NCBI GenBank assembly: GCA_000442015.1
Contig: KE560765.1
Span: forward strand, 1 to 55,366
Source: Rozella allomycis CSF55
Lineage: Eukaryota
Length of the DNA: 55,366 nucleotides
Direction: 5' to 3'
The notes beneath the pieces were generated by a model. That model did no database searches and had not been told where the DNA came from. It saw only the letters and a program-made list of their open reading frames with translations. This document shows positions 15,353 through 46,622 of this stretch, in pieces. Each line of letters opens with the position of its first letter. Positions within the stretch are counted from its first letter, which is position 1. Made by a program: the position numbers and the translations under genes.

Positions 15353-15433
15353 CGACAGCGACAGGACTCGAACCTGTGCGGGTAAACCCACATGCTTTCT
15401 AGGCATGCTCCTTAACCACTCGGACACGCTGTC
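15353..15433 (-). tRNA. tRNA-Ser(AGA)
   Basis: Acceptor GACAGCG/CGCTGTC, anticodon arm CATGC-CTAGAAA-GCATG, long variable arm, GTTCGAGTC. Confidence 0.95.
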
Positions 15434-15492
15434 ATGAAGAAATGAAATTGATTTATTGATTTAGAGCGGTATTACTTAAGCTGCAGTTCTTT

Positions 15493-16340
15493 TCAATATT
15501 CAGGCGCTCTTCCATACTCTTTGTCAAACTTCTTAATATTTCCGCTTTTAGTTCCGGTCTTATTTGCCGTACTCTATCTACATTCGCAATTATATATGTT
15601 GATTACGATGCTTGGAGGTGTTCGCTTCATCAAAGTAGTTTAGTTGCAGAGCCTCGGCAATTTTTTGACCAAAGTCCCTTAGTGCATCAACATTGTCAGT
15701 TGCTCCTGAAATCCTAACACCTTCAATACAGTATCCACCTAAATGCAAATAAAACAGTCGCTTTCCCAAACCTGTATTACAATGAATTAGAAAATACTTC
15801 CGCGGGGTTGCCTCATAAGTCTTACGTAAATGTTATACAAAGGCCCACACGTTTTAATTTCTTTGCCTATTTTATAAGTGTACTGTTTCTTTTTTAGATC
15901 CAAGATGTAGAATCGTTTGTCCTTGTACATGTATCTATGATTTAGACAATATCTTGTTACACCATGGATAGGCATCCAACAAAAATGCCAATTGGAAGTA
16001 ATGAAAATCCCTGAAATAAAGAGACCTCCTATTCGTACTTGAAAAATAGAGTTTCGGGCAATAGCTTCAGCAATGAAAAGAAACGACAGAATGACCACTA
16101 CAAGCAATGACCAGTACAGCCTCTGATACCGAACTTCCAAGACCATTTCAGAAATTAAACATATAACGATTTACCATTTTCACTGCTAGTTACAAATGGA
16201 TACACTCGGTTTTCTTGTATTTTCCGCTTTAGGACTTGTTCTGGCTTTTCAGAGAAAATAGTTGATGAGAATCTTGCGAAATGACTTGGTATTTTGAGAA
16301 CCTCTTTGGTTTTCGAAGATTTCGAAGGGCGACGCGACAT
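15493..16340 (-). CDS. TMEM249/CatSper-theta-like two-TM protein; about 5 introns
   Basis: YPFV...VLE, two TM helices, CGPLYNIYVRL, FYLHLGGY, FGQKIAEALQLNYFD. Confidence 0.7.
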
Positions 16341-16400
16341 TGAGGGGCGCAGTTACATAAATGATAAGAGGCATATAAAACACTGTCCGCCTTCAACACA

Positions 16401-16472
16401 TCTCCCATGGTGTAATGGTTAGCACTTTGGACTTTGAATCCAACAATCTGAGTTCGATTCTCAGTGGGAGAG
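16401..16472 (+). tRNA. tRNA-Gln(TTG)
   Basis: Acceptor TCTCCCA/TGGGAGA, anticodon arm TTGGA-CTTTGAA-TCCAA, T arm CTGAG-TTCGATT-CTCAG, downstream T run. Confidence 0.95.
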
Positions 16473-16603
16473 TTCTTTTTGATTTATTTGTAATCTCTCT
16501 GTTTTCACCCTTTGCTATTATTTTTATTTGAATGTTAAATTAAAAGTTAAAGACCCTTAATATTATAACTAGAATTTTTAGGCAAGTATTCGTATTTCCT
16601 GTC

Positions 16604-19417: not shown

Positions 19418-19512
19418 ACCTCCACACTTGATAATTCTATATCAAACTATTAAACTGTAACTATTCCAATAATACTATTCAATAAATTTTTAACTATTTT
19501 TATTTATGCTGC

Positions 19513-20447: not shown

Positions 20448-20617
20448 TTGCGATTTGTAAATGTATGATTTTCAAACCTGCAAATTCAAATTTCAGTTAA
20501 ACAAATTACAAACATAAGAGTAAAAACTAATTTTTACCTCATTGATAATCACCAAGCAACTATATTAATGTAGCATGTGATTTTATTGAGTAAATTTCCC
20601 AAACCCAATCTAAATTG

Positions 20618-26336: not shown

Positions 26337-26405
26337 ATTTACAATGTACAATATTGAAGTAATTATTAAATATAAATTATTAAAATATCTTTTATCAAGT
26401 TTTAT

Positions 26406-27595
26406 TTAAAAGTCACCGCAAGTTGCTATAAAGATTGCAATGTTTGAAATACTTTTAATCTTCAAAGCATTACCAGCTGAATTCAAAAACACTTGGCCAC
26501 TTTTCACCTCAACATCATTAACTTGCCCCTCCCCTTCAGTAACAATCAAAATACTAGGCCCATCAACCCCCTTCAATTCCTCCCTCTCATTCTCCTTCAA
26601 CATTACCGCAACAACCGAAAACTCATCAATCGGCGGATCATACAACAACGAATGCATCCCAATCTTTTCCGCCTTGAGCAGCTTTGACTCGGCACTGCCA
26701 TATTCATACGTCAACATTTTCGTCAAAACTTCAACATCCTTCAGCTTTGGCGTCAATCCCGCTCTCACAACATTATCACTCGACGCCATGCATTCAACAC
26801 AGTCGCCGGAAATATACGCGTGCGGCTCGTTTGCTTTGAGAAACATCGCGTCGCCTGGTTTTAGAATAACGTAGTTGAGGAAAAATAGACAGAAACAGCC
26901 AATGTCGTCGGGAAACTGATTATAGATTCGTTGGAACAGTTCTTCAATGCTTCCCCTTTTGTGTTTTTTGTTTTCAAGTCTTTTATTTAATGATTGCAAT
27001 AATGAGACGATCTTTCCGTGGTCGGTTTTCATTAACGTTGTGAACATTTCCTTCAACAATTCTCTATCTCTTTTCTTTTGTTTTACAATTTCAACATCAA
27101 AAAGGGCCCCGAATTCCTCAAAGGTATTGGTAAACATTATAATCTCTTCAATATCCCTGAATCCACACAATGCCTCGAACTCTGTCAGCGCCAACGTCAT
27201 TTCAGGCTTATGATTAGCATCTTTATAAACATTCGGAAATTTTTCATGAAGCTCCGCAGCCAGCTTTTTATCAGGATGCGCTTGGATCGACAGCGCCTTT
27301 TCAATCGACAAGACCTTGAACAGAAACGGAAGTGACTCGAACGCACCTAGTACTTTCTTGTTAGTCTTCAAATACACAGATAATGGACATGAATCGCTTT
27401 TTATGAAACATGGGCCGTTGGGGTGGTCGCCCATCCAGAGCTTTTATATTCGATTGAATTGCTTACTTCGGCATACGGCTTGGAATCGGATAATTCAAAG
27501 TCTTTGCAACATGTTTTGGCGTATTCAGCTACTTTGCTATTCTTGCCATGTTTTCCCCATTCATAGGTTTGAACAGCGCAGGTCAATTCAATCAT
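26406..27595 (-). CDS. PMI40: Mannose-6-phosphate isomerase; 1 intron
   Basis: YEWGK, YAELWMG, LSIQAHPDK, DANHKPEM, SDNVVRAGLTPK. Confidence 0.97.
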
Positions 27596-27668
27596 GTCAA
27601 TTGGAATTTTCCAAATCTTTAATACGAGTTAGAAGTGTGAAAAAAATATTTGAAAAATAAATAAATTT

Positions 27669-27797
27669 AGTCCGGTGGTCTAGTGGCAAACTAAGATGCT
27701 TTGGACGTCTAGGTGCATGGTTCGAACCCCATCCATGTTTCCGAATTTTCCGGGGTTTTCGGGTGAGGCAGGGTTCGACTCNTACCCTAAGCCACCA
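27669..27797 (+). other. tRNA-like / Pol III promoter-like element that does not fold as a canonical tRNA
   Basis: A-box TGGTCTAGTGG and two B-box-like motifs (GGTTCGAACCC, GGTTCGACTC) in a GC-rich island; contains an N. Confidence 0.4.
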
Positions 27798-27803
27798 ACC
27801 CTA

Positions 27804-28204
27804 ATGGCAGCAAAGAAACCAACAGATAGAGAGCTAGCTATAGAATATAACAACAAGAAAACTGAATTAAGGACTATCGCCGAAAGAATAGCTGAAATGG
27901 AAGCTGAACGCGACTAGCACATGTACAGAATATCCTATTTGATAATAATAGACTAGTAACGGATGCACTGAAACCTATGAATGGCGACAGAAGATGTTTC
28001 AGACTTGTCGGAGGTGTTTTAGTCGAACGCACAGTCAGCGAAGTTATCCCAGCTCTGAAAAAGAATACCGAGGGCGTAAAACTATGATCTCCATGATAAT
28101 AGATTGATGAAATCATTAAAGGCCTTCACGAAACATTTAAAAAGAAAGAGATTGAGTTTGTAAGGTTTCAAGAGCAATACCAAATTACAGAACGCGCTCA
28201 ATAA
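27804..28204 (+). CDS. PFDN2: Prefoldin subunit 2 with an in-frame TAG at 27915; 2 introns
   Basis: AERIAEMEAERD*HILV, RRCFRLVGGVLVERTV.EVIPAL. Confidence 0.88.
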
Positions 28205-28213
28205 ATTTTATTG

Positions 28214-28564
28214 TTAATGTACAAAAACTATCGCCAAGGCAATTAAGACGCCTGCAAATAGCAGGAAAAATGCAATTGTTGGTAGCAGCACTTTTGCTTC
28301 TTTGATTTTATTCATTAGTCGCTGGCATCTATGTGATATGCGAACTCTGATTGTATAGTTGGACTGGCAAAGCTCGCATTTGCTTGGATGTTTGCAGTAC
28401 GGTGAAGCTAACCATTTGGAGAGACATTTGTAATGAATACCGGATGCGGTTCCCTTACAGTTGCAGACCTTGATTAAATCGCCATTATAGTCTCCACATA
28501 TTCTACAGCATATCTGTTCTTTCTGCTTTTGCAGTTCTATATCGTCTTTTTCGATCGTTGACAT
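28214..28564 (-). CDS. RING-CH (MARCH-like) E3 ligase with a C-terminal TM helix
   Basis: CRIC...CNCKG...HYKCL.KW...CELC. Confidence 0.88.
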   Translation of the reverse strand: MSTIEKDDIELQKQKEQICCRICGDYNGDLIKVCNCKGTASGIHYKCLSKWLASPYCKHPSKCELCQSNYTIRVRISHRCQRLMNKIKEAKVLLPTIAFFLLFAGVLIALAIVFVH

Positions 28565-28645
28565 TATCTAAAGCTTATTAGAAAGACTAAATGACAAACA
28601 ATTCGAAAGTGATCAATGATACAGAAATGAATTTTATTTAAGCGT

Positions 28646-30402
28646 TTAGAACCACCCGAATCGTTTAGTAGGTTCTTTACTTGTAATGTTTAACTTGATC
28701 TCGCCATTGTCCAAAGTAATTAAGACATGATCCCCTTGTTTCAGTTGATCGTATTCATTAGCGTGAGCAAGTTTATTTATGACTTGTTTTTCAACTTCAT
28801 GTTTGATAGATCTCGCACCGTAATGAATGTTGTAACCTTTGGCCAACATTTGTTTGACTTCAGGTGTCCATTCTATCTTCATCTGATGTCTCGATTCAGC
28901 CTATTTAGAATTTTCAACAATTAATACTTTCTGTGCCCATTTATTAAGCTCCTTTTCTACAATCAATTCCAAGTCATTTTTAGTGAATGGCATAAAGAAC
29001 AATATCTCGTCAATTCTACCAAGGAATTCATCTCTTCTGAAGTATCCCCTTAGAATTGGGTATATGGTGCTGTTTATAAACTCTTCTCCAAAGAAATTCC
29101 TGGTTTGCTTTTCTTCCAAAGTTTTCGAAACCTTTTTTGTCGAGTTTTCTTCAATATCTCGAAGTCGCAATGCTTCTTCGGCAATTTCTTGTTGTGCCAA
29201 ATTACTCGTTAACACGAATATGGCGTTTTTGCATTCGACAGTCGCACCCTTTCCCTTTTTGAAAATTCGTAAATATTTTTACATCTGTTAAGCGACCTTC
29301 ATCAAACAATTGAAGCATCACAGTGAAGACATCAGGATGTGCCTTTACTAATCAAATTTATTTACTTACTTTTTCAACTTCATCCAATAATACTACAATG
29401 TTCTCGCCCCTGGATTGTTTCAATTTTTCTGTTAATTGACCGCCTTCCTCATGACCAATGTATCCTGGTGGACTTCCAATAAACTTTGTGCTTTCATTGA
29501 TTATTATTTACTTTGGCAACTTCATGCTTTGATTGGAATTCTGACATGTCAATGCGAACAAAACCTTTGGACGAATCCTTTTGTAAACTTTTCGCCAATT
29601 GCTTTGCCAATTCCGTTTTACCGATTCCTGAAGAGCCCATAAACAGAAATACTAAAGGCTTCTCTTCGTCATGCCATCCATTTTCTCTTCTTCTAATAGC
29701 GGAAGCAACAGCATGAATCGGTCCATCTTGTCCTACAATGGATTCTTTTAATCTCTGCTCCAAAGGAACTTATTAACCCTAAAATTTCTTCTTACATTTT
29801 CGCCTTTGTTCTTTATCCAGAACTTTTTGCTTTTCTCTCACAATGTCTCTTAGTTGATTTAGATAGTCTTTGACACTAGGATCAGAGCAGTAATATTCTG
29901 GAGGTTTTCCATTATCATCCAATGCATCGGGATTGGCCCCTTTAACTATTAAGAGTTTGATTATTTCCTTATTTTTCGAAAACATGGCGTAGTGTAATGC
30001 CGTTGCCCCTGTTGAGGGAAAGTCAAATCTTAATGGAAACTCCTTATCTCGCATTATGATATTAGTTTGTGCGTCTAAATTCCCGTGTGGTATATATCTG
30101 TATTCATCTCTTTCATTCAGATCTAATGTTTCATCCTCCAACAACTTTTGGACTGTCTTTATATCACCATTAGCACACGCTAAATGTAAAACGTTCCAGC
30201 CATATCTTCCTACGTGTCGCTTTTTCTCTACTTTATTCTCACAAAGAATAATTGATTTGTTAGGTGACTCATTTAAAAATATTCTATAAGTGGAATATGA
30301 AGCAAAGGAACATCCAATAACAGCACCATAAAACCCTCTTTTGTAAGAATTAATATGCGCCCTTTTTAATAAATGGAAAATCGCCCCTGCGAACTGTCTC
30401 AT
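28646..30402 (-). CDS. CLPB: Ankyrin-AAA+ disaggregase, Skd3/CLPB type, with a mitochondrial-type presequence; 5 introns
   Basis: [77 protein letters not shown]. Confidence 0.92.
29956..30350. repeat. Source copy of a ~390-bp direct repeat (CLPB exon 1)
   Basis: Near-identical to 32418-32801. Confidence 0.9.
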
Positions 30403-30532
30403 TTGTCAATCTATGATGTGGCTTAGGTGGGACTGTAAATAAAAATGAAAAGAAAGCATTAAATTTTTTATAGTTATTTTCAAATGGTCAAGGTCGATTA
30501 TTAGCACTGAAGACATTATTGATAAAAAGAAT

Positions 30533-32230
30533 TTATTTAACCCTGTACCCAAAAAATTCACGCAATTGACGCCGAAACATAGAATCTGCTCCTTCGCGCA
30601 CAGTTTCATTAAAATTCACATAATATATAGGTAATTCCTCAACATCTTGTTTAAATCGAAAGTATGTTCGGGGCGATACGCCCCAAACAAATTCACGATG
30701 ACGATCATAATTAGCTATTTGCAACATTATTTGATTATTAGGATAATCACTAATAGAAGGAATTTTCTCCATTTCAATTGTGCTATTGCGGATTCTTTCT
30801 GCTGCTAACGAGATGGTAGAGTTAAATGTCTTTAGCTTTTCCATATGCGAAGTGTAATTACTTAAAGTTGGATTTGTGACATTTAGTTTAGGCATTGCAA
30901 CATTGCCATTCTTTATGTCATCTGCAACAACTTCAAATTTATCTTTATAATACTTAAATGCCTCATTTAATTCTCTTTGCAAATACGGCAATAAATCTGC
31001 TCTGGTAAGCCAATCACTCAAAAAATAGAAGGGTGGCCATGGAAGTGAGGAAGTTTCAATCTTCAATGGTTGCATTGTATTGAAAGTCTCTGTAAATTTC
31101 TTGGTAACGATGTTATACGTTTCAAGAGATTCGTGGCAAACTTCTACAAAAGCTGTTAAATTTTTTGCAGCCTGCTCAATTTGTTCACGATCAAAATGAA
31201 ATTTTGTCACCCCTTCATAAAAGTTACTGTGTTGCGCGTGGAAATTCGTTTCATCCTGTAATATTTGTTTCTGAGTCTTTTTAGTTTCATTTACTATTTC
31301 AAATGTTGATGGAGCTACCTTCTTGGCTGCTTCAGATATCTTAATTAAATCTGCTGATAGTGTTCCAGTTGTAGCAACAAGATTCTCATACAATCGTTTC
31401 ATTTCAAGCCTTTTCTTACGATATTCTTCAATCATTGTCAGTTCAGCTTCATGATTTTGTTTTGCTTGCATCATTTCTAAAGTACTAAAGGACCGCCCAT
31501 TGTTTTCAATACACTTTTGATAAATACCAGCATAAGCATTCTCAAGAAACACTCTTCTTGCGCCTTCGTCATATATCTTTTCCTTTTTGTTGTTGCGAAA
31601 CAAGGTGAGTTTATTATGACGATAAAACAGATATTTAACTGAATCAAGCAATCCGCTCGGTGCTATATTTGCCATTACTTTTTTGAACTCTTGTATTTTC
31701 TCATTCTCTGCGGTTTCATCATAAATAATGTTATCCGCAAAAGTAAACACAACAAATCCATGTTTGTAGCCTTCTTCATTAATCAAAGAGTTCCAAGAGC
31801 TCATAATGTTTGAGAGTTTAAAGTCTGACTTCCTTTCAATAGACACTACCAAAAAGAATGCATCGAAACCATCTTTAAGAAATTCAGGCACTTTAGAAAG
31901 AATTTGTGATGATATTTCATTGTTTTTGTCATTGTCTTCTTCGAAGCCAGGTGTGTCAATAACGCGAAGAGAGATGCCATCGTGGCTACACGAATAGGGT
32001 TTTACTATGCAGGTACAAGACTCGACACCAGATGAAGTTTTGGCAACTGCGTTTTCATCTCCGTCGTCCAAGTCGAGGAGACCGTGTAGAACATTTACAA
32101 TACTGGACTTTCCAGCACCCATATAACCGAGCAAAAGGACATTCAGAGGTCGGTCACACACCTTTGCACCAGTAGGAGAAGCAACTAGAAAGTGAAAGCA
32201 ACAGAGGAAGACTGCGAGGAAAAAATTCAT
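30533..32230 (-). CDS. AIG1/GIMAP-like GTPase with predicted signal peptide and coiled-coil C-terminus; intronless
   Basis: MNFFLAVFLCCFHFLVASP; NVLLLGYMGAGKSS, SCT, VIDTPGF, VVFTFAD. Confidence 0.8.
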   Translation of the reverse strand: MNFFLAVFLCCFHFLVASPTGAKVCDRPLNVLLLGYMGAGKSSIVNVLHGLLDLDDGDENAVAKTSSGVESCTCIVKPYSCSHDGISLRVIDTPGFEEDNDKNNEISSQILSKVPEFLKDGFDAFFLVVSIERKSDFKLSNIMSSWNSLINEEGYKHGFVVFTFADNIIYDETAENEKIQEFKKVMANIAPSGLLDSVKYLFYRHNKLTLFRNNKKEKIYDEGARRVFLENAYAGIYQKCIENNGRSFSTLEMMQAKQNHEAELTMIEEYRKKRLEMKRLYENLVATTGTLSADLIKISEAAKKVAPSTFEIVNETKKTQKQILQDETNFHAQHSNFYEGVTKFHFDREQIEQAAKNLTAFVEVCHESLETYNIVTKKFTETFNTMQPLKIETSSLPWPPFYFLSDWLTRADLLPYLQRELNEAFKYYKDKFEVVADDIKNGNVAMPKLNVTNPTLSNYTSHMEKLKTFNSTISLAAERIRNSTIEMEKIPSISDYPNNQIMLQIANYDRHREFVWGVSPRTYFRFKQDVEELPIYYVNFNETVREGADSMFRRQLREFFGYRVK

Positions 32231-32417
32231 CGAGATAACCAGGGTATCCCTTTGAAAATCCGGAAATCTAAAAGATGCAAAATCAGCCACAAATATCAAA
32301 ACAAACTCTAGACACTTTATCTCCAATCAAACCTCAAAGTTCTTCCTTTTCATTCCGATCTTCGCCCAAATTGGAATTTCAATCTTTTCCAACAGTTAAA
32401 AAAGGGTTTGGTAGATT

Positions 32418-32801
32418 TTGATTATTTCTTTAAACATGGCGTAGTGTAGTGCCGTTGCCCCTGTTGAGGGAAAGTCAAATCTTAATGGAAACTCCTTATC
32501 TCGCATTATGATATTAGTTTGTGCGTCTAAATTCCCGTGTGGTATATATCTGTATTCATCTCTTTCATTCAGATCTAATGTTTCATCCTCCAACAACTTT
32601 TGGACTGTCTTTATATCACCATTAGCACACGCTAAATGTAAAACGTTCCAGCCATATCTTCCTACGTGTCGCTTTTTCTCTACTTTATTCTCACAGAGAA
32701 TAATTGATTTGTTAGGTGACTCATTTAAGAATATTCTATAAGTGGAATATACAGCAAAGGAACATCCAATAACAGCACCATAAAACCCTCTTTTGTAAGA
32801 A
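32418..32801 (-). pseudogene. Partial duplicate of CLPB exon 1
   Basis: A few substitutions and a 9-nt deletion relative to 29956-30350; ends at N 32802. Confidence 0.75.
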
Positions 32802-33478
32802 NGGAGTTTAAACTAAATATTGTTATTCTTGCATCTGCACCTAACCACGCTATACTAACGACATTGGCACAAGTGACGGATTTTATCCCATATAAACATG
32901 TCAACAAATAGGACAGATTTTTTGTAACCAATATGAATTGCTTTTCTACGCTACAAGGTTTTCGATAGCAAAGCAGTATTCAAGATTGTTCACATGTTCT
33001 TACAATGCTATTTGATCGTATCATCATCTACAAGTGTGTATTAGTAATGCATTACTGATTACTAGTAAGTAGTAGAATTCTCAAATCACAAAGAGTAAAA
33101 AAGGANGGGGTTGCAGTAAACATGAAACTTGTACTACGACCTCCAAAAAGACCAAAATATGGTTATACTTTCATCTGCACTTAACTACACTGTAACTACC
33201 GACATTAAAAGCAATTAAAAGTGGTTACACATATAACTAATCTATCCTATTCGTTGGCATGGCATATAATCCATCATTTGTGACAATGTCGGCAGCTGGA
33301 TTGCTTCCAACATTATCCAAGAGCCCTTTAACTTCTTTTCTANAATGAGACTTCTAACTTTTCAGACCATGAGATTTGATTCAAATCATTCAATAAAACA
33401 TTTGTGGAATATAGATTTAATCATCAAAATTTGAATATTCTAGAACAAGCATGTGACCACTTGGCACTTAAGCCACTA

Positions 33479-35213
33479 ATGCACATGCTCAGACAAGCTA
33501 TTTATCTTCTGACATATTTGGTATATATCTCATGCAATTTGCACGACAATGATTTCATATACATAGAGTCCTTGAAATACCCGGGATATTACATTGAGAG
33601 CACATACAAGCGCTTATACAGAAAACCAGACTATTCGTTGTTTGAGCTATCGCCATGCGATGTTCCGTATCCAGAAATATTGCCATTTTTTGAACAGCAT
33701 TGGACAAAGGATATTGTGATGGGAAGGCTGGAAAATTCAGCGCGTATGGAAAGTAAACGGTTTCGAGTCAATTTTAATAAACATGATGGCTTTATGAGAA
33801 TATCTCAGTATGATGATGAAACTATGAAGCTTGCTTATCTGTCGTGGCTTCCGACCAGACAAATGAAAAGAGTGAATGGGCAATTGCAAGGGCGAGGGGC
33901 TATGCATATGAGCCGACGAGCAATCCATGTTTCATTCAACACTTTTAAATTTGTTCATTTGTACGATGATAGGTTTGCCATTTTAGCATATGATGGATTT
34001 TTAATGGTTGATCAAAACGTTTTGCAAAGTAGAGAAGGCGTTTCAGANAAAGTAGAGAAGGTGTTTCAGAGCATGACATTGGCAATGTTCAAATTGTATT
34101 GCAAACTTTTGACGGAGATGCCTTTGAATTGAAAAGTATTCCAGAGGCTGCAATGTTTCGAATTAGAAATATGGATTTTTCATATGCAACAATTGCTTCG
34201 AATGATTTGGACAAGTCTGTTTCAAAGTTTGAATTTCTTGAAGGGATCGAGAGCGATCTTTCCAGTATAGAAATAGCAGATCTTCCCTTGTTTTGTAATT
34301 ACTTTGAATATTTTTGATGCAGGGAATTTCGATATTCAAAGAAGGAAAGAGGAAAGATGGGCAAGTGGACAGGAATTGCTTACTTTCAACAATTATAGAG
34401 TTAGCAACGTCAAAGAAACTGTGGCGTTAATATTGATAAACAGAGACTACTTTGTTTCATGGGTGTCTCTTTACGAAAGGTTTAAGGAGCCACATTTCAA
34501 GAATTTCCATTTCAAAGACCTTCAAGGTCAAGGTGCTATCAGTTTGCAAACTTTCATTACATCAATCGCGAATGATTACATGATAAATAAGAGAAGAATT
34601 TTTACGCCGTGCGAGGGTTTTATATGTATCACGCCAATTTTAAATCCTAAACCATTTCAACTAAAAATGTATGCTGCATTTGGTGCTCTTTGCGCTGTCA
34701 GTATCATAAAGAAGATACCATTAGGACTTAAGCTACCCCGATTTATGTTAAAATTTCTATATTACGGGGCCAAATTCGATTTAGAAGATCTTTACGAAGT
34801 ATATCCAGATTACCGTGAATATTTTCATCTTTTAGAGTAAATTCTACTTTTTGATTGAAATAGAATTAACGATAACTTGGAAGCACATCAGATTCCATTT
34901 GTTGCCAAAGTAGATTTTGTTGATAGCAAGGACCGCCATATGGAAATTATTCCTCATGGGTCTTATACAATTCTTACCAATAATAATCTTGAGATTTACA
35001 AACAGTAATTATTTCATATAGAGTTAAAAGTCAATTTGCGCTTTGGAAACTGTACGTGCAAGTTAGATCACAAATGATGGAAATTAGAGAAAACTTTTTG
35101 TCTCATCTGGGAGGCTGGATGAGCTACATAGAATATAAAGATTTAGAAGTAATTCAATCATTACATATTTACCCTAGATATTGAATCAACCAATCTCATT
35201 TGCTAGCGCATAA
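33479..35213 (+). CDS. Predicted secreted protein with a truncated HECT N-lobe; 4 introns
   Basis: Hydrophobic N-terminus; FGALCAVSIIKKIPLGLKLPRFMLKFL, LEDLYEVYP, EIIPHG...LTNNNLEIY; stops before the HECT C-lobe. Confidence 0.65.
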
Positions 35214-35328
35214 TATCATTAACTTTATTCAATAAATAGAATTAATTTCATTCAAAACCAAATTACCGCAATTCATTAATTATTTTATGCTTTTCGGAGA
35301 ATTAGGCAAAAGTGGCTGAAGGCGCCAC

Positions 35329-36975
35329 ATGTTAGGAAACGAAGAGCAAGAAAGAAACAAGTTGGAATCTTCAAATAATAGTCTGACAATAACAGACAAC
35401 AGGACTGGTTTGACTTATGCGCTTCCAATTGTTGATGGAACTGTTAATGCGCTCCTATTTAAGAATATAACTATTCCTGGCCAACTAGAAGGAATAAGGT
35501 AAATATTTAACTACAGTTCAAGAGAATATTTGACCCGGCCTATCAAAATACTGCAGTAGTGAGATCATCGATATGCTACATTGATGGCGAAAAGGGGGTG
35601 TTGGAGTATAGGGGATATCCTATTGAGCAGTTGGCTGAAAAATCTACGTTTCTGGAAGTGGCGTACCTGCTGATATATGGGGACCTTCCTGATGCTGTAA
35701 ATTATATTGACGGTTGAAAATGTAGGATCAATTGAAAGATTGGAGTGATCAAGTAATGAGACACACGTTTGTACACGTGAATTTTAATGAGCTGATGAAA
35801 AGCTTCAACTATGATGCGCATCCTATGGGAATGTTCATTTCATCGTTGGCTGTAATGTCAACGTTTCATCCAGAAGCGAATCCATCTTTAGTTGTAATTA
35901 TTTGACATCTTACAAATAGGACAATGACATTTTCATTAAAGATGAAAAGATAAGAAACAAGCAATTCAAAAGGATTCTTGGCAAGGTGACTACCATCGCA
36001 GCAAATGCTTATCGACATCGCATTGGACGGCCATTTAATCTGCCACAGAATCACATGACGTACACTGAAAACTTTCTGTACATGATGGACCGTCTTGCTG
36101 AAAAAGACTACAGAGTAACTCAGTTGAAACGGTTATGACGAAAGCCCAATCAAAGATTGTCGAGAATACTTGATATTTTATTTATTCTCCACGCTGACCA
36201 TGAATTGAATTGCTCTACAGCTGCCATGAGACATATTGGATCATCTTTGGTTGATCCATATAGCGCCTGCGCTGGTGCCGCGTCTGCATTGTATGGCCCC
36301 CTCCATGGCGGTGCAAACGAAGTAATGACAAATTTTGAATTCAAAAGGCTGTTTTAAGAATGTTGGAAGAAATAAAAGATCCTTCCAACGTTTCCGAGTT
36401 TTTAATTCAAGTAANTTTCCGAGTTTTTAGTTCAAGTAAAAGAAAAGAAGAAGAAATTGATGGGATTTGGCCACAGAGTTTATAAAAATCATGATCCAAG
36501 GGATAAAATTATAAGAAAACTGGCCTATGAAGTAAATTTAGTTTTATGTAATTAGATTGGTGTTTGATATTGTTGGAAGAGAACCTCTGATTGACGTTGC
36601 TGTTGAACTTGAGAGACAGGCGTTGGAGGATGACTATTTTGTCAGTAGAAAACTTTATCCAAATGTCGACTTTTATTCTGGATTGATTTACAAAGGTAAT
36701 TAATAAAACATTTGTGTTTAAAAGCGATGGGATTTCCAACAGACTTCTTTCCAGTTCTCTTTGCAATTCCAAGAGTAGCTGGATGGTTGGCCCATTGGAA
36801 AGAATCATTAAGTGACCCACAAAGCAAAATATGGCGTCCAAGACAAATCTATTCAGGGGAAAAGACAAGAGATTACGTTGAGATTAACAAGAGAATTCCA
36901 ACTGGCATTAATTTAACAAAGAGTGATGGTCATCCATACAACAAGAGAAGCTACGTTGCAACATTTTCTAAATAA
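35329..36975 (+). CDS. Citrate synthase, bacterial/plant-peroxisomal type; 7 introns
   Basis: [64 protein letters not shown]. Confidence 0.95.
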
Positions 36976-37006
36976 ATATTAATTGAAATGAAAAAATAGA
37001 TTTTAT

Positions 37007-37887
37007 TTAAGCGCGATCTTGGATTTCCTTCAAACGAAGAGCTTCCTTCTTTGCTTGTTTGATCATAGCCTTGTGTCCCATGATACCACCGCCCCATTGT
37101 CTACGAACTTCATCAAACTTGTCATTGTAGTTTGCCTTGACAGCTGAAACAAGGGCGTTCAATTCTTGCTTGTCTTCAGCTTTAACTTCAGTCAAAGCCA
37201 AAGCAGTAGCGGTCTTCTTATGCACAACGGTTCCGAGACGAGCCTTTCCCTTGACGATAGCATATGGAACTCCCATCTTGCGGCAAAGAGCTGGCAACCA
37301 GACGACCAATTCAATTGGATCAACATCATTAGCAATGAGAACAAGTTGAGCCTTTTTGTTTTCAATCAAGGCAGTGATATGGTTCAATCCGTACTTGACC
37401 ATAACTGGCTTCTTTCCTTGGTTGACAGTCTTTCCTTCAGCAACTTGTTGAGCAGCAGAAGCAAGTCTCTCCTTTTTCTGGATTTTGGTTTCTGGACGGT
37501 ACTTGTTCAACAATTTAAATGCTTGGGTAGCTATAAATAAAAGAAAATATGTTTAAATACCAGTGTTCTTATCCAAGACACGAGTGAATTGGTTGATGGA
37601 TGGTGGAACCTTTAAACGCTTCTTGAGAACAGCACGTTGTCTTTGCAAACGAATGTAAAATGGCCACTTGATGACGCGAGAAAGATCGCGCTTTGGCTGG
37701 ATGTCTTGACCGATTCCAAAGTTGCGTGGTGTTTTTTCAACCAAAGGATTTACAGCCTTTTTAACTGGTTTCTTGCTTTTGATTGGAGCAGATGCGACTT
37801 TTTTGGAAACCTGGAATTAATATTTGCTTATTTAATAGATTTTTAAATAAATTTGAATAAAGAATTTAAAGTAACTGTTCCTACCAT
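37007..37887 (-). CDS. RPL7A: 60S ribosomal protein eL8 (L7a); 2 introns
   Basis: [36 protein letters not shown]. Confidence 0.97.
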
Positions 37888-38123
37888 TTTTTTCTGCAAG
37901 GGTTGGGAGGCTGGGTAATTCAGAAAATGTAGAAATTTTGGACAAGTTGAAAATGCGCAAACTTTAAGTGTTGAATGTGAAATATATTTAAATTAAATAA
38001 AGTGATAAGAATATCAATAGGTTACAAGTGATGATCATGGATGCTTGAGATATTTTTTCTTTAGGAAATTTCTAAAACATAATTTCATAAACTAATATAA
38101 TATAGAAAGGATTTAACATTGGT

Positions 38124-40264
38124 TTATTCAGAAAGAGTGCGAAACTTTTCTTCAATTTCTTTTGCTAATTTTTGATAGCGCTCAATTAGAGTGCTTTCAC
38201 CATCAGCTGGATCCTAAGTTGAAAAGAGAAGAATAAATGTACTTCAAACTTCATAGAGCTTAATTTGTAGATTAAATCGCCCATTCCATCTTTAATTCTG
38301 GCCCAAGAAAGAGAGCCACCAGAAGTTTCAATTGCATGCACAGCTTGATTGTAGAAACCAATCATGTTTCTGAGCATCCAAACAGTTTTATAGAATGGAC
38401 AATAGCGATCATAATTAGAGTAACCATTTTGTTGTAAGAAATCATCTTTAATAATTTTAGCGACTTCCAGGGTGACTTTATCAGATTCAGCCAAAGCAGA
38501 TTTTCCAACTAATTGAACAATTTCAGATAAATCTTCTTCAGTTTGTAAAATTTCTTTGCATTTTGTTCTTAAAGAAACAAATTCAGAATCAAAATTTTCA
38601 TAGTAAGGATCTAACGCTTTCATGTATTTGGAATAACTGAGAGACCAATTAACAGAAGGGAAATGTTTTCTTTGAGCCAATTTCTTATCTAAACCCCAAA
38701 ACACTTGAACAATTCCAAGGGTTGCTGAAGTGACTGGATCTGAAAAATCNGGGTTGCTGAAGTGACGGGATCTGAAAAATCACCACCAGGGGGTGAAACT
38801 CTATTTTTATTTAATTTAAAATTAATTTACGCTCCAACAATGCTAACACTTCCTTCTCTCTGTGGATTACCAAGACAAACAACTTTCCCTGCTCTTTCAT
38901 AGAATGAAGCTAAACGTGCACCCAAATAAGCTGGATATCCACTATCAGCTGGCATTTCAGCTAAACGCCCAGAAATTTCACGCAACGCTTCAGCCCATCG
39001 TGATGTACTATCAGCCATCTTATTAATAAACAAATTCAATTCTTACCATTGCTACATTCTTTCCTTGATCTCTAAAATACTCAGAAAGAGTAATTCCAGT
39101 ATAAATAGACGCTTCTCTAGCAGCTACTGGCATATTTGATGTATTCGCAACAAGAGTCGTTCTATTCATAATACTCACATCCGCTCCCTTGTGTTTAATT
39201 GATAAACTTGGAAAATCCATCAAAACTTCAGCCATTTCATTTCCTCTCTCTCCACACCCAACATAAATAATAACATCTGAATTTGAATATTTAGATAACG
39301 ATTGCGAAATCACAGTCTTTCCACACCCAAACGCACCTGGAATAGCTGTAGTTCCTCCTTGCACACATGGAAACAATGCATCCAACACTCTCTGTCCTGT
39401 CAACAATGGATAATCAGCTGCCAACTTTTCAGAAACTGGTCTTGGCGTTCTAACAGGCCACACTTGCATCATCGTGTATTGACTCTTTTGTCCCATAAAT
39501 TCTGTCTCCAAAACAACATCATTCAACGTGTAACTTCCTTGTGGCGCTATATACGTAATAGTCCCCTTGGCCTTTGGTGGCAAGATTATGTTATGCTCAA
39601 CCAGCGTGTTTTCATGCACAATTCCATAAATGTCACCTCCAGTAACATGATCTCCAACCTTTCTTGTCTCATATTTAAATTTACTCTCAATTTTCCAGGC
39701 ACAAATTCCCATGATACAGTCTTATCCAACGCTGATGTATTTATTCCTCTGGGAATGTAAATACTTTTAGATGCATCTTGAATAGCCTTTCATTAAATAA
39801 CACATTCCTTACTTTGAGTGGTCGTTGAATCCCATCATATATATTACTACACAAACCAGGTCCCAATTCAACAGACAAAGGCTGTCCAGTCTTCAAAACA
39901 GGATCCCCAATCGTCAATCCAGCTATTTAACACCACCAACTCTTCTTACACGTTTCCTCATAAACCTGTATAGTTGCTTTATCTCCTTCTATTCTAATCA
40001 CCTCTCCAACCAATTCCAAATGCCCTACACGCACCTATACCACACTCCTCATCCTATTACCAATTCATACATGGCAGATCCAGTCATATTCTCAGCTATC
40101 ACAACTACTTTCCTCACATCCACAAACCATACCTGGCCCAGACACCGAATACACATATCCATACTCATACGCATGCAATTCCGAATCAAGGATTTTCGGC
40201 AACTCCCTTTTAGCGTTCTCCAGTGCTCCTGCCTTGATTCATCGCCATTCATTACAATTACCAT
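38124..40264 (-). CDS. VMA1: V-ATPase catalytic subunit A; about 8 introns; no intein
   Basis: [46 protein letters not shown]. Confidence 0.97.
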
Positions 40265-40365
40265 TGACCAGGGTTATCAAGCAAACACTGTCGCATATCA
40301 AACATTAAAAAAATTATCTCACATCTATTTTATTCATAGTGGTTGCAGATCTTGAAAAATCATAA

Positions 40366-41562
40366 ATGAATTTTCCCGCTTGGTCAACTATAGAAAGCGA
40401 GCCGGCGATATTCACGGGAATCTTGCAGGAACTCGGTGTGCAGGATGTCAAGGTGGAGGAAATATACTCGCTTGACAAGTCCAGCTTTGATCCGTTCGAG
40501 TACGCTCTTGGTGTTTTGTTGTTAGTGTAGTCTATGGACTGATATTCTTGTTCAAGTGGAATGAAGATGCAAACAAGGCAAAAGCAATTAGTGTTTGCGA
40601 AAATAATGTTTATTTTGCGAAACAGATCGTTGATAACGCGTGTGCGACGCAGGCTGTTTTGAGCATTGTGTTGAATAGAGATGATGTTAGTATTGGAGAT
40701 GATTTGCTACAGTTTAAAGATTTGACAAGGAATCTTACACCACAAGTAATTCTTTAGTGGTCAAGTGAAAGGAAAAAGGAGCGGCGATTGGGAGATCAGA
40801 ATTATTGAGGAAAGTTCATAACAGTTTTACAGCGTAATTATATTTATAAAGATTTTTCAGCAATTTCGAAACCGAAAATAATTACAGAAGGGAAAAATCG
40901 ACCAAGAAAACTCGTGAAATGCAAGTTGAATATGATGCATATCATTTCATAGCCTACGTTCCCGTTAACGGATATCTTTTTGAATTAGATGGACTGAATA
41001 ACGGNNNNNNNNNNNNNNNNNNNNNNNNNNNNNNNNNNNNNNNNNNNNNNNNNNNNNNNNNNNNNNNNNNNNNNNNNNNNNNNNNCGACTGGCTAGATCT
41101 CGCAATCCCATGTATCATTCAACGCACATGTATGTATGAATCTTCAGAAATACGATTCAATTTAATGGCTCTAATTAAAGATAAACGAATCCAGTTTAGC
41201 AATATTCTCGAAAAAATCCAAACGTTGATTCAGGACTCTCAACTTGAATTGTCTAATGAAGAGAACAGCTTTTATGAAAAAATGATTCTCAAAGAAGACG
41301 CAAATTATTTAAGAGAATTTTTGAATAGCCTGGAAGGTAATGAAAAGGCGAAATTTTTGGCCTCGTTGAATGGAACCTTTAGAAAATTCTCAAATAAATT
41401 AACTAATGAGCAAGACATTTTGAAATCATATCAAGTAATAGTCTTCAATAAAACTTATAGGACAATAATCAGAGAATGAAGAAAGGTTATGCAGAGTTTA
41501 TAAAAGAGTACATCAAAATTTTACACAAGAATAATGAGCTACAGGATTTAATAAAAGGTTAA
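40366..41562 (+). CDS. UCHL5: Ubiquitin C-terminal hydrolase UCH37/UCHL5; 4 introns; spans an N gap
   Basis: WSTIESEP, GLIFLFKW, QIVDNACATQA, YHFIAYVP, FELDGL, IRFNLMA. Confidence 0.9.
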
Positions 41563-41579
41563 TTTATTCATTAATACGT

Positions 41580-43024
41580 TTATTCAGAGTCGCTGTAATT
41601 TTCTTCAACAAAAAGGATCGATGATGGACAAAGCCCTGCCTTTACAAGGGTTACGTCCATGTCCAAAAGTTGCTTTTTAGGCATACTTGTGCATAAATGA
41701 TAATTCATTTCCAATGGAACTACATCCATACCTTCCAAGAAATCATACAAATCCTTTCATAATCGTCAGCTAATTTTACTTTCACAGTGTCAGAGGATTT
41801 GAATTTCCGTTGAATTTTAGTTCCATCTGATAGTCGAATCAGAATCCTGCAAATATCTCCTTGGTCAGTTATCTCATTCTTGAACTTTTCCTTTAATTCA
41901 AGTCTTTTTCTTTTTCTTTCTTCCAAAATTCTTTTAGCTTCATTCTCTCGATTTAGCTTTTCTATTCTTTCCATTTCCTTTCTCTTCTTTTTTTCTTCAT
42001 CGGCTCTGAGTGATGCCAAATAAGCATCATTTTGCTCGTCTCGAATTGACCTTTCAGATTCACGACGCCTATTATTGTCTCTTTCAGTTACTAAAGCTTG
42101 ATTGAATTCGTCTATTCTTTCCTTGAATGTCTCAATCATTGTATCCTTTTCTATTTCACCTTTAAAAGCTGACAGAATTTGCAAGCGATTTTGTTCGGTT
42201 GCAACAGCCAAGGCGAAAAATGGATATTTAGGAACTTTGAGGATTCTATCAGCGACTGTATTAGAGGATTCAGTAATTTACAGTCATAAGCAAGGGAATA
42301 AGTGACATCGCCTCCCCAAATCATAATCTCATTCTCAACAAGAAATTCTTTGAAGCGTTCAGACGCTACGACATTCCTTTTTTAAACCTCGAAACAAATT
42401 ACTTTGCAACATTGTCACAATCTGGTATTCCATCATTGTGCAAATAGAATATCATATACTTTGAATCTTCTATTGCCTTTTTGATCATCTGTATAGTAAC
42501 AAAGTTGTTTTTTACGAGTGAAGGTGTTCNTTACCAGCGAAGGTGTTCCAATGAAGAATTTAGGTGGCTCTAAATTATATTTGCCCCTAAAGTAATTTAT
42601 GAAGCCTTCTGATGATTGATGCTTTGTTGGAGGCAAAATAGCCCTTATTGGAGCGAAAATCCAATTCACTAATATAAGAAATTAGATTTAGTTTACGTAT
42701 AGTTTCTAAAACACCATAAAAAATGTTTGACACGTAACGAATGGTTCTCCAAATATATGACGTGGCCGTTGTTTTAGGAGCATGCATTTCATCGTTAGTT
42801 TCAACCTTGTCCGTGTTATTGTCTAAAATAGCGTTAATGGCATCCTATTTATTAGATAACACTACTAGGTACTTGAACTTGCCAATTATTTTCCTCGAGA
42901 ATTTTCACAGCTAAATCAAAATCATCAATTTCTGTGACAGACTGAAAAATGACAGAGAATATAAGTTTACTAGAACGAGCTCGACTTTTTCTTGTTCCTC
43001 TTGGTTGAAAGATCTACATGACAT
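41580..43024 (-). CDS. UBA-UAS-UBX protein (FAF2/Ubx3-like)
   Basis: N-terminal UBA-like segment, WGGDV, YPFFAL, IRDEQNDAYLASLRADEEK, IRLSDGTKIQRKF. Confidence 0.85.
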
Positions 43025-43076
43025 TTTCTAGAAATTTCAAAAGAACAAATTAGCCAAAAATGTAATTATTTTATGT

Positions 43077-44845
43077 TTATTTTACTAAAAATGCTGATAA
43101 ACCTTTCCTACAAATTGAAGCTGCGTCTTCAAGTAACTTTTCCTTTTCAGGAGTCCATAGATATTGTTTGGCAATCTTTTCATTCATAAATTGAGATCCA
43201 AACATATTTTGATATAGCAATTTCTCTTCAATTAATCTATATAAACTAGCCAAAATATTTTTACTTTGAGAATTCGCTAGAATCGCCTTGACCAGAGCAT
43301 AGTATGATTAATGAATTTTCAGGACAGAAATCATATATAGATTTAATCTGATCATCAAATTCTTTTAAATATTTAATTCTGGTTTCTTCATCTTTATCTT
43401 TTAAATTTTGGTAAGCCATCATAGTTTTTAATCTAGTCCAAATGAAATCTGCCTTTTCAAGTGATTCTTTAATGTTTGATAAATGTTTATCTGGATCGTT
43501 AGAATCATAACGAATGTAATGCTCAACATCCTTTTCATGCCACATCAAAGAATCAACAATTGCTGATTTCTTATTAAAAGATGAAAGCTTTTTAAACAAT
43601 GAGATTGCGTTTAATTTATTTTTACCAAAAGCTTTCCCTTTTTGGATTTTAAGTTTGGTGAGTTTAAGAGCAGCTAAAGCATCTTCTCTTGGGTCGTGTC
43701 CGTCTAATTTTTGTTGAATTTCGCTGTTTAGAAATCTCTGCGCTAAAAATTTTAAAGAAGGTTTCCATCCACGACCTTTACCATGATCAAAAATTACTGA
43801 AGTGTCCACAACGTTTTTATGAATCAATCGAAGTGCGTGCAAATCATTTTCTAATCCATGCCCAATAATAATTGTTTCTTCATGAATAATCTCCAAAATT
43901 TCTTGCTGGACTTGACTCAATGTTTTCGTCGTCTCTTTCAATATTTCTTCAGTTATTCCAGAATATCTTTATAATGATTAGAATTTAAATTTACTCTGTT
44001 AAATAATCAACAACTTTGTGCTCCGGTTTCACAAATTCATCATACAAAACTTTTTCATCAAAGTCCATAATTGTAACTCTGGCACATTCAGAATACTCTG
44101 TCATAACCTTTTGAAATTTCAAACTATTAATTTACCATTTCACAGTCTATAACAACAATATCTTTACTTTTATGCCCTTTAACTGATTTGCACGTTGAAA
44201 TATATCCAACTTGTACTAATTCATCAACTAGTTCATCGAATGTTTTATCATCGTTTATTTCTCCTTCTTCCACCTCCAACTTTAATCTTTTTCTGGCATT
44301 CTCCTCATTAAAATCATCTTTAAGCAAAGGATTGAAATTGTATGGCGGAAATTTGTTTTCTTCTAATAATTTGGCACTCATCAACAAATCCTTTAATGAA
44401 ATTAATTGTGACGCCTCTCTTTGGCTCTCTTTGAACTGTTCTTTACTAAGTTTCGATGTCAATAAATCATCAATATAACTATACACTCGGTTTCTCTCCC
44501 CTGGCGTCTTGGTTCCTACAAATTGAATAATCTTTTCATTCAAAAATGACATTTCTGAAGGAACATCATACAATGACATTTTTTCGTCTTTTTGAACTAG
44601 AAGCGATGGCGTGAATCCGGGCGTTATTAAAATGATAATCTTATTAAATTTCGCCTTGTTCTACTTAAATCTTAGCATTCCAGTTACTTTGACAAAAATC
44701 CAATTCTGATTAATCCCATCTGTCCATATCCACTCAACTACCTCTCGGACTTTCTATATTAATATCTCAAAATTTATACCGCGGTTGTTATGTCTTGTTT
44801 CAGGAACTCTGGCATCAACTTTACCGAAGGGAACTTCTTCTTCAT
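43077..44845 (-). CDS. DEDDh RNA exonuclease, REX1/RNH70-like; 5 introns
   Basis: IDCEMV, VDYLT.YSGIT, IGHGLENDL, VVDTS, GHDPREDA. Confidence 0.9.
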
Positions 44846-44974
44846 GAAATACTGTGCCACAAGAACAAACGAGGGAATACAAATCATTAAATGATTATTG
44901 GAAACTATTGCTTGGAGTCCAAACTTATTCTTAAATATTGGGTTACAATACTATGAATTGCATCAGTAGCTTTA

Positions 44975-46045
44975 TTATTTTAAAATTTTTGAAGAGCCAT
45001 TGGTATTAGTACCTTTGGCACTTTCCACTTTGGAACCACCGTCGCTATATAATTTTTTAGTGAAAAATTCATCAATATACTTATTTAAAGCCACTAATTT
45101 GGTCCCAAATATCGGGACAAACCTTGACATGTCGTCAGCCGTACCAAAGAGAAACATCATACCAGTACCCATGGAAGAAAGATGCAACTGGGTAATAGGA
45201 ATAACTTGGAAAATAGTGAATTCCGGGTTAAGAAAAGACAAAATGATCTCACATGCCATCATGATACCCGTTAAAAATGAAAAAACCCCTAATGTCACGC
45301 AAGTAAATACCATTTGTGGTTTCAATGCGGATCTCGCTCCGTGATGTTTTAACTGAGAGCTATTTCTTGCAATAATCTTAATAATTGGATACAGAAAGAT
45401 AGGAATCGCTAATGTAACCGCAAAATCTACTAATGTATTAAGAGAAAAAGTTCTATATCGATAAATGTCGACCATACAGTAAAAACCTGAAAATACATGA
45501 AGTGATTTGGATCCAGAATTTTGCGCTTCAATGGAATAGACAAGTTCAATAGCGGCTAAAAATGCAGGGATTACGAAGCATATTATCAATGAAATCCCCC
45601 ACAATTTTCTAGAGTCTTCAAAGAATATTTTGCTGCAGATGTTTCTAAATGTACCAAATGTTGCAATAGTTTTAGTGCACGCTAAGTAGAGTATAAGAAA
45701 ATAGATAAATAGCATGTATACCAATCCATTCAGAAGAAACATTATAAATGTCCCCGATAAAATACAAGTCGACTCTTGAAAGATATTATAGGAATAGTCC
45801 TTTGTTGGAAGTTCATCCGCTGTGGAGTTAAAAAGAGTGTAAAATCCTGATACAATCATTGTTGAATGAAGCAGTAACATAAAGATTATCGACCAGAAGT
45901 AATACGGATATGCTGGTTTGCTGATCGTAAGTTTGTGTGTCAAATTGTAATGAAACAACCTAATGGTTGCAACGAGCAAAATACCCGAATTGATTAATGA
46001 ATTGGTATGCAAAAATAATAGCACCCAAATATATGGCCTGTACAT
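44975..46045 (-). CDS. Intronless 7TM, GPCR-like membrane protein
   Basis: About seven hydrophobic segments; Cys at the start of TM3 and in a later loop (FYCMV). Confidence 0.65.
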   Translation of the reverse strand: MYRPYIWVLLFLHTNSLINSGILLVATIRLFHYNLTHKLTISKPAYPYYFWSIIFMLLLHSTMIVSGFYTLFNSTADELPTKDYSYNIFQESTCILSGTFIMFLLNGLVYMLFIYFLILYLACTKTIATFGTFRNICSKIFFEDSRKLWGISLIICFVIPAFLAAIELVYSIEAQNSGSKSLHVFSGFYCMVDIYRYRTFSLNTLVDFAVTLAIPIFLYPIIKIIARNSSQLKHHGARSALKPQMVFTCVTLGVFSFLTGIMMACEIILSFLNPEFTIFQVIPITQLHLSSMGTGMMFLFGTADDMSRFVPIFGTKLVALNKYIDEFFTKKLYSDGGSKVESAKGTNTNGSSKILK

Positions 46046-46076
46046 TCAATTGTTTCTATGGAGACTTGAATATAAT

Positions 46077-46602
46077 TTATTCGTCAAAAGCTTGATTATC
46101 ACCATCATTAACGTCGTTTAGTAATGGAATTCCAAACAACCCTCTCCAAAGATTTATTATATCATCTTCATAATCGTTTTCAATTGCGAAATCTAATACC
46201 TAATTGAAGAGAAATTGTGCTTCGATACCGATAGTCCCGCATGGTCCTTTAATAAATGATTTGCTCCACGTGAAATTAACATCTGTGCTATTTCAATATT
46301 TTCGCAGTAAAATAGGCAGTTTCCTCCTTCATTATCAGTTAAATTTATATCAGCGTTCCTTTGAAGAAGATATTCTATAACATCAAGATGATCGTATGCC
46401 ACAGCTGCAGCGCTAGAAAATAATATTCACAAGATATACTTACAGAGGAAAGTATCCATTGTCATCTTTTGCGTTGGGTGAGAATCCCTCGTTTTCAATA
46501 TAGTGTTTGACCATAGTCACATCTCCGTCACCGACATGAATTTAATATATAATCGATACTTGCGGCGATCCAAATGTTTAGTTTTTCATGAGTAGAAACC
46601 AT
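46077..46602 (-). CDS. Small ankyrin-repeat protein (yeast YCR051W-like); 3 introns
   Basis: NIWIAASDGD, PNAKDDNGYFPL.AAV.YDHLDVIEYLL, DNEGGNCLF. Confidence 0.8.
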
Positions 46603-46622
46603 AAAAAAAGTAGAATAATGTT

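Follow-up and report, generated by a model that had tools for sequence, protein, structure and literature searches.

Candidate tiny U2-type introns with non-AG acceptors in three genes of a Rozella allomycis contig

We analyzed a complete contig of 55,366 bases from Rozella allomycis CSF55 (hereafter the window), in which densely spaced genes are cut by very short introns. Three of its genes, encoding a bacterial-type citrate synthase, a TMEM249-like protein, and a small ankyrin protein, each contain one insert that, judging from DNA and protein sequence, is probably an ordinary tiny U2-type intron cut at the usual distance from its donor and ending in two pyrimidines and a G, which would constitute genuine non-AG splicing. 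The candidates occupy positions 16149-16174 on the minus strand in the TMEM249-like gene (26 nt, ending in CTG, 77% AT), 36532-36559 on the plus strand in the citrate synthase gene (28 nt, ending in TTG, 82% AT), and 46532-46559 on the minus strand in the ankyrin gene (28 nt, ending in TCG, 75% AT). Their donors, GTAAATCG, GTAAATTT, and GTATCGAT, all begin with GTA, and retention of any one of the three inserts leads to a stop codon inside the insert or just past it. With respect to the features of U2-type introns, all three have a GT donor and a length typical of the contig, whereas the terminal dinucleotide is TG, TG, and CG instead of AG. The candidate lengths lie within the 26-31-nt class of introns described below, whereas the AG alternatives lie outside it (41 nt in the TMEM249-like gene, 37 nt in the ankyrin gene, and 24, 48, or 50 nt in the citrate synthase gene). 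An earlier interpretation of the same DNA, made from the letters alone and referred to here as the sequence-only reading, had described three AT-rich inserts of 26-28 nt with GTA donors, and these were found as described. The gene identities that it had assigned also hold (PF15158 for TMEM249, PF00285 for citrate synthase, and ankyrin families for the third gene), and the excision with non-AG ends that it had favored agrees, at 26, 28, and 28 nt, with homolog spacing in the citrate synthase and TMEM249-like genes and with the fit to the repeat pattern in the ankyrin gene.

The strongest case is the citrate synthase gene (35329-36975, plus strand, 8 exons, PF00285), which is firm at the DNA and protein level and in which we judge genuine non-AG splicing to be very likely. 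After removal of the 28-nt intron and of a 25-base assembly artifact, the coding sequence comprises 1428 nt without a stop, i.e., 475 open codons. The catalytic block with the family signature is located at 36463-36501, in agreement with membership in PF00285. The six other introns of this gene are 26-30 nt long and end in GAG, TAG, TAG, AAG, AAG, and AAG. The candidate is intron 6, a phase 0 intron of the form GTAAAT...TTAGATTG, and the same mRNA results if its boundaries are moved by 1 or 2 nt (TA..GG or AA..GT). The reading across the site is ...KLAYE, then GTAAATTTAGTTTTATGTAATTAGATTG, then GTGTTTGAT. No AG within 50 nt of the donor preserves the frame: the TAG ending at 36555 (24 nt) gives a stop, and introns with their last base at 36579 (AAG, 48 nt) or 36581 (GAG, 50 nt) shift the frame. 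The spacing between the DPR and YPN[VI]D motifs is 42 residues in 107 of the 108 fetched homologs that have both motifs; removal of 28 nt yields 42 residues, compared with 43 for 25 nt and 41 for 31 nt. With the 28-nt removal the protein aligns without gaps to homologs such as ...AFEVFDVCGREPL... The enzyme belongs to the bacterial/peroxisomal type, and the best non-Rozella match of the exon that was tested (P0009), with 91% identity, is located on a G+C-rich genomic contig.

The genomic bases at this site can be compared with contigs built from sequencing reads. Two DNA runs (X1 and X2) each include one contig that covers approximately positions 36415-36709 and represents a second allele, which differs from the window at 36503, 36525, 36536, 36548, 36595, and 36607, and in X1 additionally at 36643. 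Among the changes listed for the whole comparison, which comprise 40 of the 427 differences and 12 of the 24 indels, no change or indel falls between 36549 and 36594, and the changes within the intron are those at 36536 and 36548. Since the X1 and X2 contigs list no change there, the second allele has the same end, ...TTAGATTG followed by GTG. The citrate synthase gene contains 18 of the listed differences, divided equally between introns (9) and exons (9). Eight of the nine exonic differences are synonymous, including all three in the exon after the intron and one of the two in the exon before it, and the ninth replaces D with A, toward the homolog consensus. Because the exonic allele differences are nearly all synonymous, both flanking exons are under purifying selection; with both frames selected, the two exons must be joined, and only a removal of length 1 modulo 3 does so. 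Elsewhere in the gene, the intron at 36115-36144 carries six substitutions and three deleted bases. The assembly artifact mentioned above is a 24-nt tandem copy plus an N (36391-36415, plus strand) at which two alleles were joined; the copies on either side of the N at 36415 are 96% identical, and dropping one of them restores the protein sequence.

The TMEM249-like gene provides a good case, and genuine non-AG splicing in it is, in our judgment, likely on the basis of homolog comparison. Exon 1 (16175-16340, minus strand) consists of 55 codons plus one base, carries the NRVYPF motif, and is missing from the public model. It is followed by the phase 1 candidate intron 1 (16149-16174, minus strand; GTAAAT...TTTCTG), which has its donor GT at 16174-16173 and contains no AG after the donor. 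Exons 2-4 (15453-16148, minus strand) are separated by ordinary introns at 15772-15797 (26 nt, CAG) and 15578-15606 (29 nt, TAG), and the annotated models P0001 and P0005 are spliced precisely at these two AG introns. The full model encodes 268 aa; exon 1 ends in ...QENRVYPFVTSSEN, followed by GTAAATCGTTATATGTTTAATTTCTG and then by AAATGGTC. The in-frame AAG at 41 nt, ending at 16134, is the sole AG option, because no AG lies between the in-frame TAA of the insert and the conserved block; its use would remove a further 15 nt (16134-16148, minus strand) coding for E-MVLE.

Exon 2 alone scored 20.8 bits against PF15158 (TMEM249/DUF4579), under the 25-bit cut-off, and a profile search returned 18 proteins, all with PF15158, comprising the Rozella model and 17 proteins from other organisms. 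The N-terminal NP.[YH]PF motif, supplied in Rozella by exon 1, is present in 15 of the 17 homologs. The spacing between PF and VRY is 11 residues in 11 of the 17 homologs, with a range of 9-16, and no homolog has fewer than 9. Removal of 26 nt gives 11 residues, whereas the 41-nt AG model gives 6; models with 20 or 29 nt removed give 13 or 10 residues, respectively, and neither of them ends in AG. Two tRNA genes, tRNA-Ser(AGA) at 15353-15433 on the minus strand and tRNA-Gln(TTG) at 16401-16472 on the plus strand, directly flank this gene and are the sole Rfam matches in the window.

The small ankyrin gene (46077-46602, minus strand, 4 exons), which matches ankyrin families, is the weakest of the three cases, graded as fair; it rests only on the fit to the repeat pattern, which in our judgment tips the balance slightly toward genuine non-AG splicing. 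With a 28-nt first intron the gene encodes 145 aa, and its other introns are 31 nt and 29 nt long, both ending in TAG. Candidate intron 1 (46532-46559, minus strand; GTATCG...CATGTCG) lies in phase 1; exon 1 ends in ...NIWIAA, followed by GTATCGATTATATATTAAATTCATGTCG and then by GTGACGGAGATG. Excision of 28 nt produces IWIAASDGDVTMVKHYI and restores AASDGDVTMVK, and this sequence is collinear with AAxxGxxxxVKxLL, which we take to be the ankyrin helix-turn-helix pattern. The public model cuts a further 9 nt (46523-46531, minus strand) as part of a 37-nt intron with a GAG ending at 46523, and thereby loses the turn of the first repeat, including the turn glycine. The PDB alignments of the annotated protein begin at residue 13-14, and a word search for orthologs of the ankyrin protein returned only generic repeats.

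The introns of the window form a narrow class. The genetic code is standard, open frames reach 1032 codons, and the G+C content is 31-38%. Introns were called with our own dynamic-programming parser, which combines codon log-odds, GT donors, and a length prior. Under a flat prior (23-30 nt) it returned 68 AG introns, with 26 introns of 26 nt, 12 of 27 nt, 13 of 28 nt, 8 of 29 nt, 3 of 30 nt, and one each of 23 and 25 nt; since these lengths still cluster at 26-30 nt, the 26-nt floor was not created by the prior. A retrained and more permissive run, which contains some false calls, yielded 109 AG introns, 96 of which are 26-31 nt long, with a hard floor at 26 nt. The parser made false calls in the TMEM249-like and citrate synthase genes and jumps over assembly artifacts marked by N. 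None of the eight parsed introns longer than 31 nt is, in our own judgment, independently supported, as several of them span such artifacts or compensate each other, and the same judgment applies to introns shorter than 26 nt.

The vast majority of the 109 introns (100) start with GTA, and the same number take the first AG located at position 26 or later. An earlier AG is skipped in 34 of 92 core introns, and eight such AGs end at positions 24-25. The acceptors are TAG (46 introns), AAG (44), CAG (14), and GAG (5), so that AAG is about as common as TAG in the window; the earlier hand count of approximately 38 AAG and 3 GAG among about 100 introns was therefore roughly right. The acceptors are preceded by an A-rich run (A at position -4 in 41 of 64 introns), and no pyrimidine tract is seen. 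A search for branch-site motifs found TGAA in 27 introns (11.7 expected) and TTGA in 24 (12.6 expected), a weak, about twofold enrichment at variable positions. In two of the candidate introns TAAT occurs 6 and 8 nt from the end, whereas the third has no TAAT. Compared with the ordinary tiny GT-AG introns of the contig, the candidates are alike in the GTA(A) donor, AT content (72-82%), length (26-28 nt), and the stop encountered on retention, with all three phases seen; they differ in ending in CTG, TTG, or TCG and in lacking the usual A-rich run before the acceptor. Rozella introns of about 30 nt without microsporidian motifs are mentioned in passing in one earlier publication (PMC6349667).

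Several observations weigh against non-AG splicing at these sites. The next downstream AG is in frame in both the TMEM249-like (41 nt) and ankyrin (37 nt) genes, a coincidence with a chance of about 1 in 9 if these AGs are irrelevant. In the ankyrin gene the 37-nt GAG is the sole AG option, the annotated protein P0126 uses it (IWIAANVTMVKHYI), and a crude ankyrin profile built from 9 repeats gave 24.8 vs. 24.2 bits, which does not separate the two variants. When the parser was allowed non-AG acceptors at a penalty, it chose the citrate synthase intron at a penalty of 6 bits, whereas for the ankyrin intron the penalty had to be lowered to 3 bits, at which it was one of 20 mostly spurious non-AG calls (10 per strand), and the TMEM249-like intron was never chosen; ab initio scoring alone lifts only the citrate synthase intron above noise, and the other two depend on homology. 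Six of the 92 core introns bypass a non-AG G at position 26 for an AG located 2-4 nt later. A real assembly artifact lies 117 nt from the citrate synthase intron. The comparison with read contigs covers 20 kb of the window (26650-46649): it supports the genomic bases in the citrate synthase gene, where the TTG end is kept in the X1 and X2 contigs, whereas the TMEM249-like site lies outside this region, and at the ankyrin site no difference is found among those listed (40 of 427). A search of the sequencing runs showed no RNA run containing the stretch. One RNA run (X11) gave 35 short contigs with 90-95% likeness, whose named pieces fall solely on the gene for V-ATPase A (38426-39271); another organism is their probable source, and they carry no information on the three junctions.

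If AG is obligatory, the first introns of the TMEM249-like and ankyrin genes would be 41 and 37 nt long and their proteins slightly shorter, whereas the citrate synthase transcript would be spliced at the 24-nt TAG or left unspliced, with no full-length enzyme produced from that copy. The in-frame downstream AGs in both genes and the public ankyrin model with its 37-nt GAG speak for this explanation; in addition, all 109 other parsed introns use AG, and according to a human survey TG is never the sole acceptor (PMC2374985). Nonetheless, we regard it as unlikely. The short spacing that it implies for the TMEM249-like protein is found in none of the 17 homologs, the 37-nt ankyrin model deletes the turn glycine of the first repeat, and no intron of the window longer than 31 nt or shorter than 26 nt is, in our own judgment, independently supported. 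Furthermore, the citrate synthase gene that would be sacrificed is otherwise intact, with 475 codons and with eight of its nine listed exonic differences synonymous.

Gene decay offers a second, rather improbable explanation, according to which acceptor AGs were mutated in a reduced parasite genome and the genes, or these alleles, have ceased to be expressed as full proteins. Such decay would be plausible in an obligate parasite that has lost genes, and all three public models are truncated or odd. However, no frame break or additional stop was found in any of the three genes once the known assembly artifacts were removed, and the TTG end is present on both citrate synthase alleles, with flanking exons that differ almost only synonymously. 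An error of sequencing or assembly, with a true AG hidden by one wrong consensus base per intron, is still less probable. The window does contain 17 single Ns, 10 of them with near-identical tandem copies, copies of this kind are skipped by the reads at two places, and reads and window differ at 427 places in 20 kb; yet no N or repeat borders any of the three sites, contigs built independently from two runs retain ...TTAGATTG before GTG in the citrate synthase gene, and three independent errors from A to a pyrimidine precisely at position -2 would be required. The artifact of N-flanked tandem copies, considered separately as a candidate explanation, was rejected, its pattern being found at 10 of the 17 Ns and at none of the three sites. 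Finally, a non-spliceosomal or minor-spliceosome route, such as IRE1-type cytoplasmic splicing, the U12 spliceosome, or ribosomal bypassing, is very hard to credit: the XBP1 intron, which we take to be likewise 26 nt long, and the ankyrin donor GTATC, which resembles the presumed start of a U12 donor, speak for it, whereas the donors are the same GTA(A) as in about 100 neighboring introns, the lengths match the spliceosomal class, and none of the motifs that we would presume for these routes was found (a cut between CNG and NNGN at both ends, a TCCTTAAC-like box, or matching take-off and landing codons).

The parse shows that the 3' splice site in this genome is confined to a very narrow interval 26-31 nt from the donor and that nearer AGs are skipped. 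Under the reading of genuine non-AG splicing, the second catalytic step would, in introns lacking an AG in this interval, still occur within it on a G preceded by a pyrimidine, and not at an AG 9-20 nt beyond. The terminal G would pair as usual with the G that opens the intron, and the A at position -2, which normally touches the branch adenosine, would be dispensable at such a short branch-to-acceptor distance. A weakened second-step fidelity system (Prp18, Slu7, or Prp22) might be involved, although this is a guess.

The rule proposed in the sequence-only reading, under which distance and a terminal G are sufficient to set the 3' splice site, does not survive in that form, as an AG in the interval takes precedence. 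A terminal G at the right distance is insufficient, because the six core introns noted above bypass such a G for a later AG. Given these bypassed Gs at position 26 and the 100 of 109 introns that use the first AG at or after this position, AG clearly takes priority, and TG or CG would come into use in introns with no AG in the interval. A rule by which the first G from position 26 onward is used was rejected: G occupies 6 of 62 test positions compared with approximately 16% in intron interiors, which is no clear avoidance. The data fit a hierarchy in which the site must lie 26-31 nt from the donor, an AG there wins, and otherwise a G preceded by two pyrimidines may serve. The share of about 3% GT-BG introns suggested earlier is best treated as an upper estimate from one contig, with one firm and two probable cases among about 100 introns. 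More tentatively, and with the odds in our view against it, the Rozella spliceosome could possess a ruler of 26-31 nt and a relaxed requirement for A at -2, such that 1-3% of introns (hundreds genome-wide) would be constitutive GT-YG introns. It would then be a natural counterpart of prp18-deficient yeast, perhaps tied to the loss or change of a second-step fidelity factor toward microsporidia.

Three known systems resemble the candidates in part. U12-type introns have variable 3' dinucleotides set by the distance from the branch site, and the definition of the 3' end by distance is thus shared with them. However, the candidates have no U12-type donor or branch box, and their 26-28 nt are far below usual U12 sizes. 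A U12 assignment was rejected, since neither a RTATCCTT donor nor a TCCTTAAC branch box, which we take to be the diagnostic motifs, occurs in the three inserts.

In human U2-type introns, a TG acceptor functions in 36 genes; according to the survey by Szafranski et al. (2007, PMC2374985), it is bound to a nearby AG and "never the sole 3' splice site". A second study (Parada et al., 2014, PMC4176328) deals with GNAS and TSPYL2 and with the GT-GG intron of BANP, conserved in vertebrates. The human cases and the Rozella candidates are alike in being U2-type introns with a TG (or GG) end and a late-step choice of the site, and the citrate synthase TG, located 4 nt past a TAG, is tandem-like. In contrast, the Rozella non-AG site would be the only one from which a functional protein results, two of the genes have their nearest AG at distances of 15 and 9 nt, and one acceptor is CG. 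A TG-AG tandem of the human type was rejected as a description of the candidates: the TAG 4 nt upstream in the citrate synthase gene gives a stop, in the other two genes the nearest AG follows only after 15 and 9 nt, and one candidate ends in CG.

The third system is S. cerevisiae lacking Prp18, which, according to Roy et al. (2023, PMC10711555), uses non-YAG and "BG" sites near the branch point; the same study describes Prp18 and Slu7 as dispensable at short branch-to-acceptor distances and Prp18 as a ruler of the minimum distance. Non-AG sites ending in G close to the branch point are the common feature, and the difference is that such sites are low-level errors in the yeast mutant, whereas in Rozella they would be natural, productive wild-type sites. 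A pan-eukaryotic survey of minor introns contains no mention of Rozella (PMC10639083), and a literature search, to which the Rozella genome paper itself and supplementary files did not belong, found no report of non-AG acceptors or non-AG splicing in Rozella.

If the non-AG reading is true, a measurable share (about the percent level) of the U2-type introns of Rozella, a eukaryote in its wild-type state, would have a non-AG acceptor as the only productive site, and the organism would offer a natural system for studying second-step site choice at minimal branch-to-acceptor distance. At each of the three sites the public annotation is wrong or doubtful, in line with the earlier suspicion that standard annotation would miss such introns. 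In the citrate synthase gene, the public model P0008 (449 aa) skips the entire catalytic exon. In the TMEM249-like gene, P0005 starts at an internal Met, and the public proteins lack the first 128 residues. In the ankyrin gene, the turn is lost. Errors of this kind are probably numerous in the Rozella gene sets on which comparisons of early fungi and microsporidia rely.

The assembly of the window shows several further peculiarities. For 10 of the 17 single Ns (2841, 20052, 34048, 36415, 38750, 42530, 53684, 54399, 54757, and others), near-identical tandem copies of 18-36 nt lie on both sides, in most cases with a difference at one base; it looks as if the assembler had placed two alleles head to tail. 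In read contigs, 32 nt are absent at 38718-38768 and 19 nt at 42520, and the N artifacts break the frames of the citrate synthase, V-ATPase A, and ArsB-like genes. The 427 differences between the DNA-run contigs and positions 26650-46649 of the window amount to approximately 2%; in the citrate synthase gene they are densely spaced in introns, and those in exons are mostly synonymous. Such a pattern points to a diploid with strong heterozygosity.

A fragment of another ankyrin gene is present in two near-identical copies, at 29782-30405 and 32399-32812 on the minus strand, at a distance of 2.6 kb from each other. In contigs of three runs, position 32512 is directly followed by 33887, so that 1374 nt are omitted, which reflects either a segmental duplication that differs between alleles or another assembly problem. 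A gene for an ArsB/CitMHS-type transporter (Pfam matches at 53632-54180 and 54272-54760, plus strand) changes frame twice within 150 nt (54130-54320), with no GTA-type intron there; the first change sits in a TG-rich low-complexity stretch and may be due to an indel error or to an atypical intron with a GTG or GTT donor. At 46623-48264 on the minus strand, a long gene contains a tandem repeat rich in Gln and His, with units such as NQQQQPENAQLGH; this region is open on both strands, and the introns that the parser placed there are spurious.

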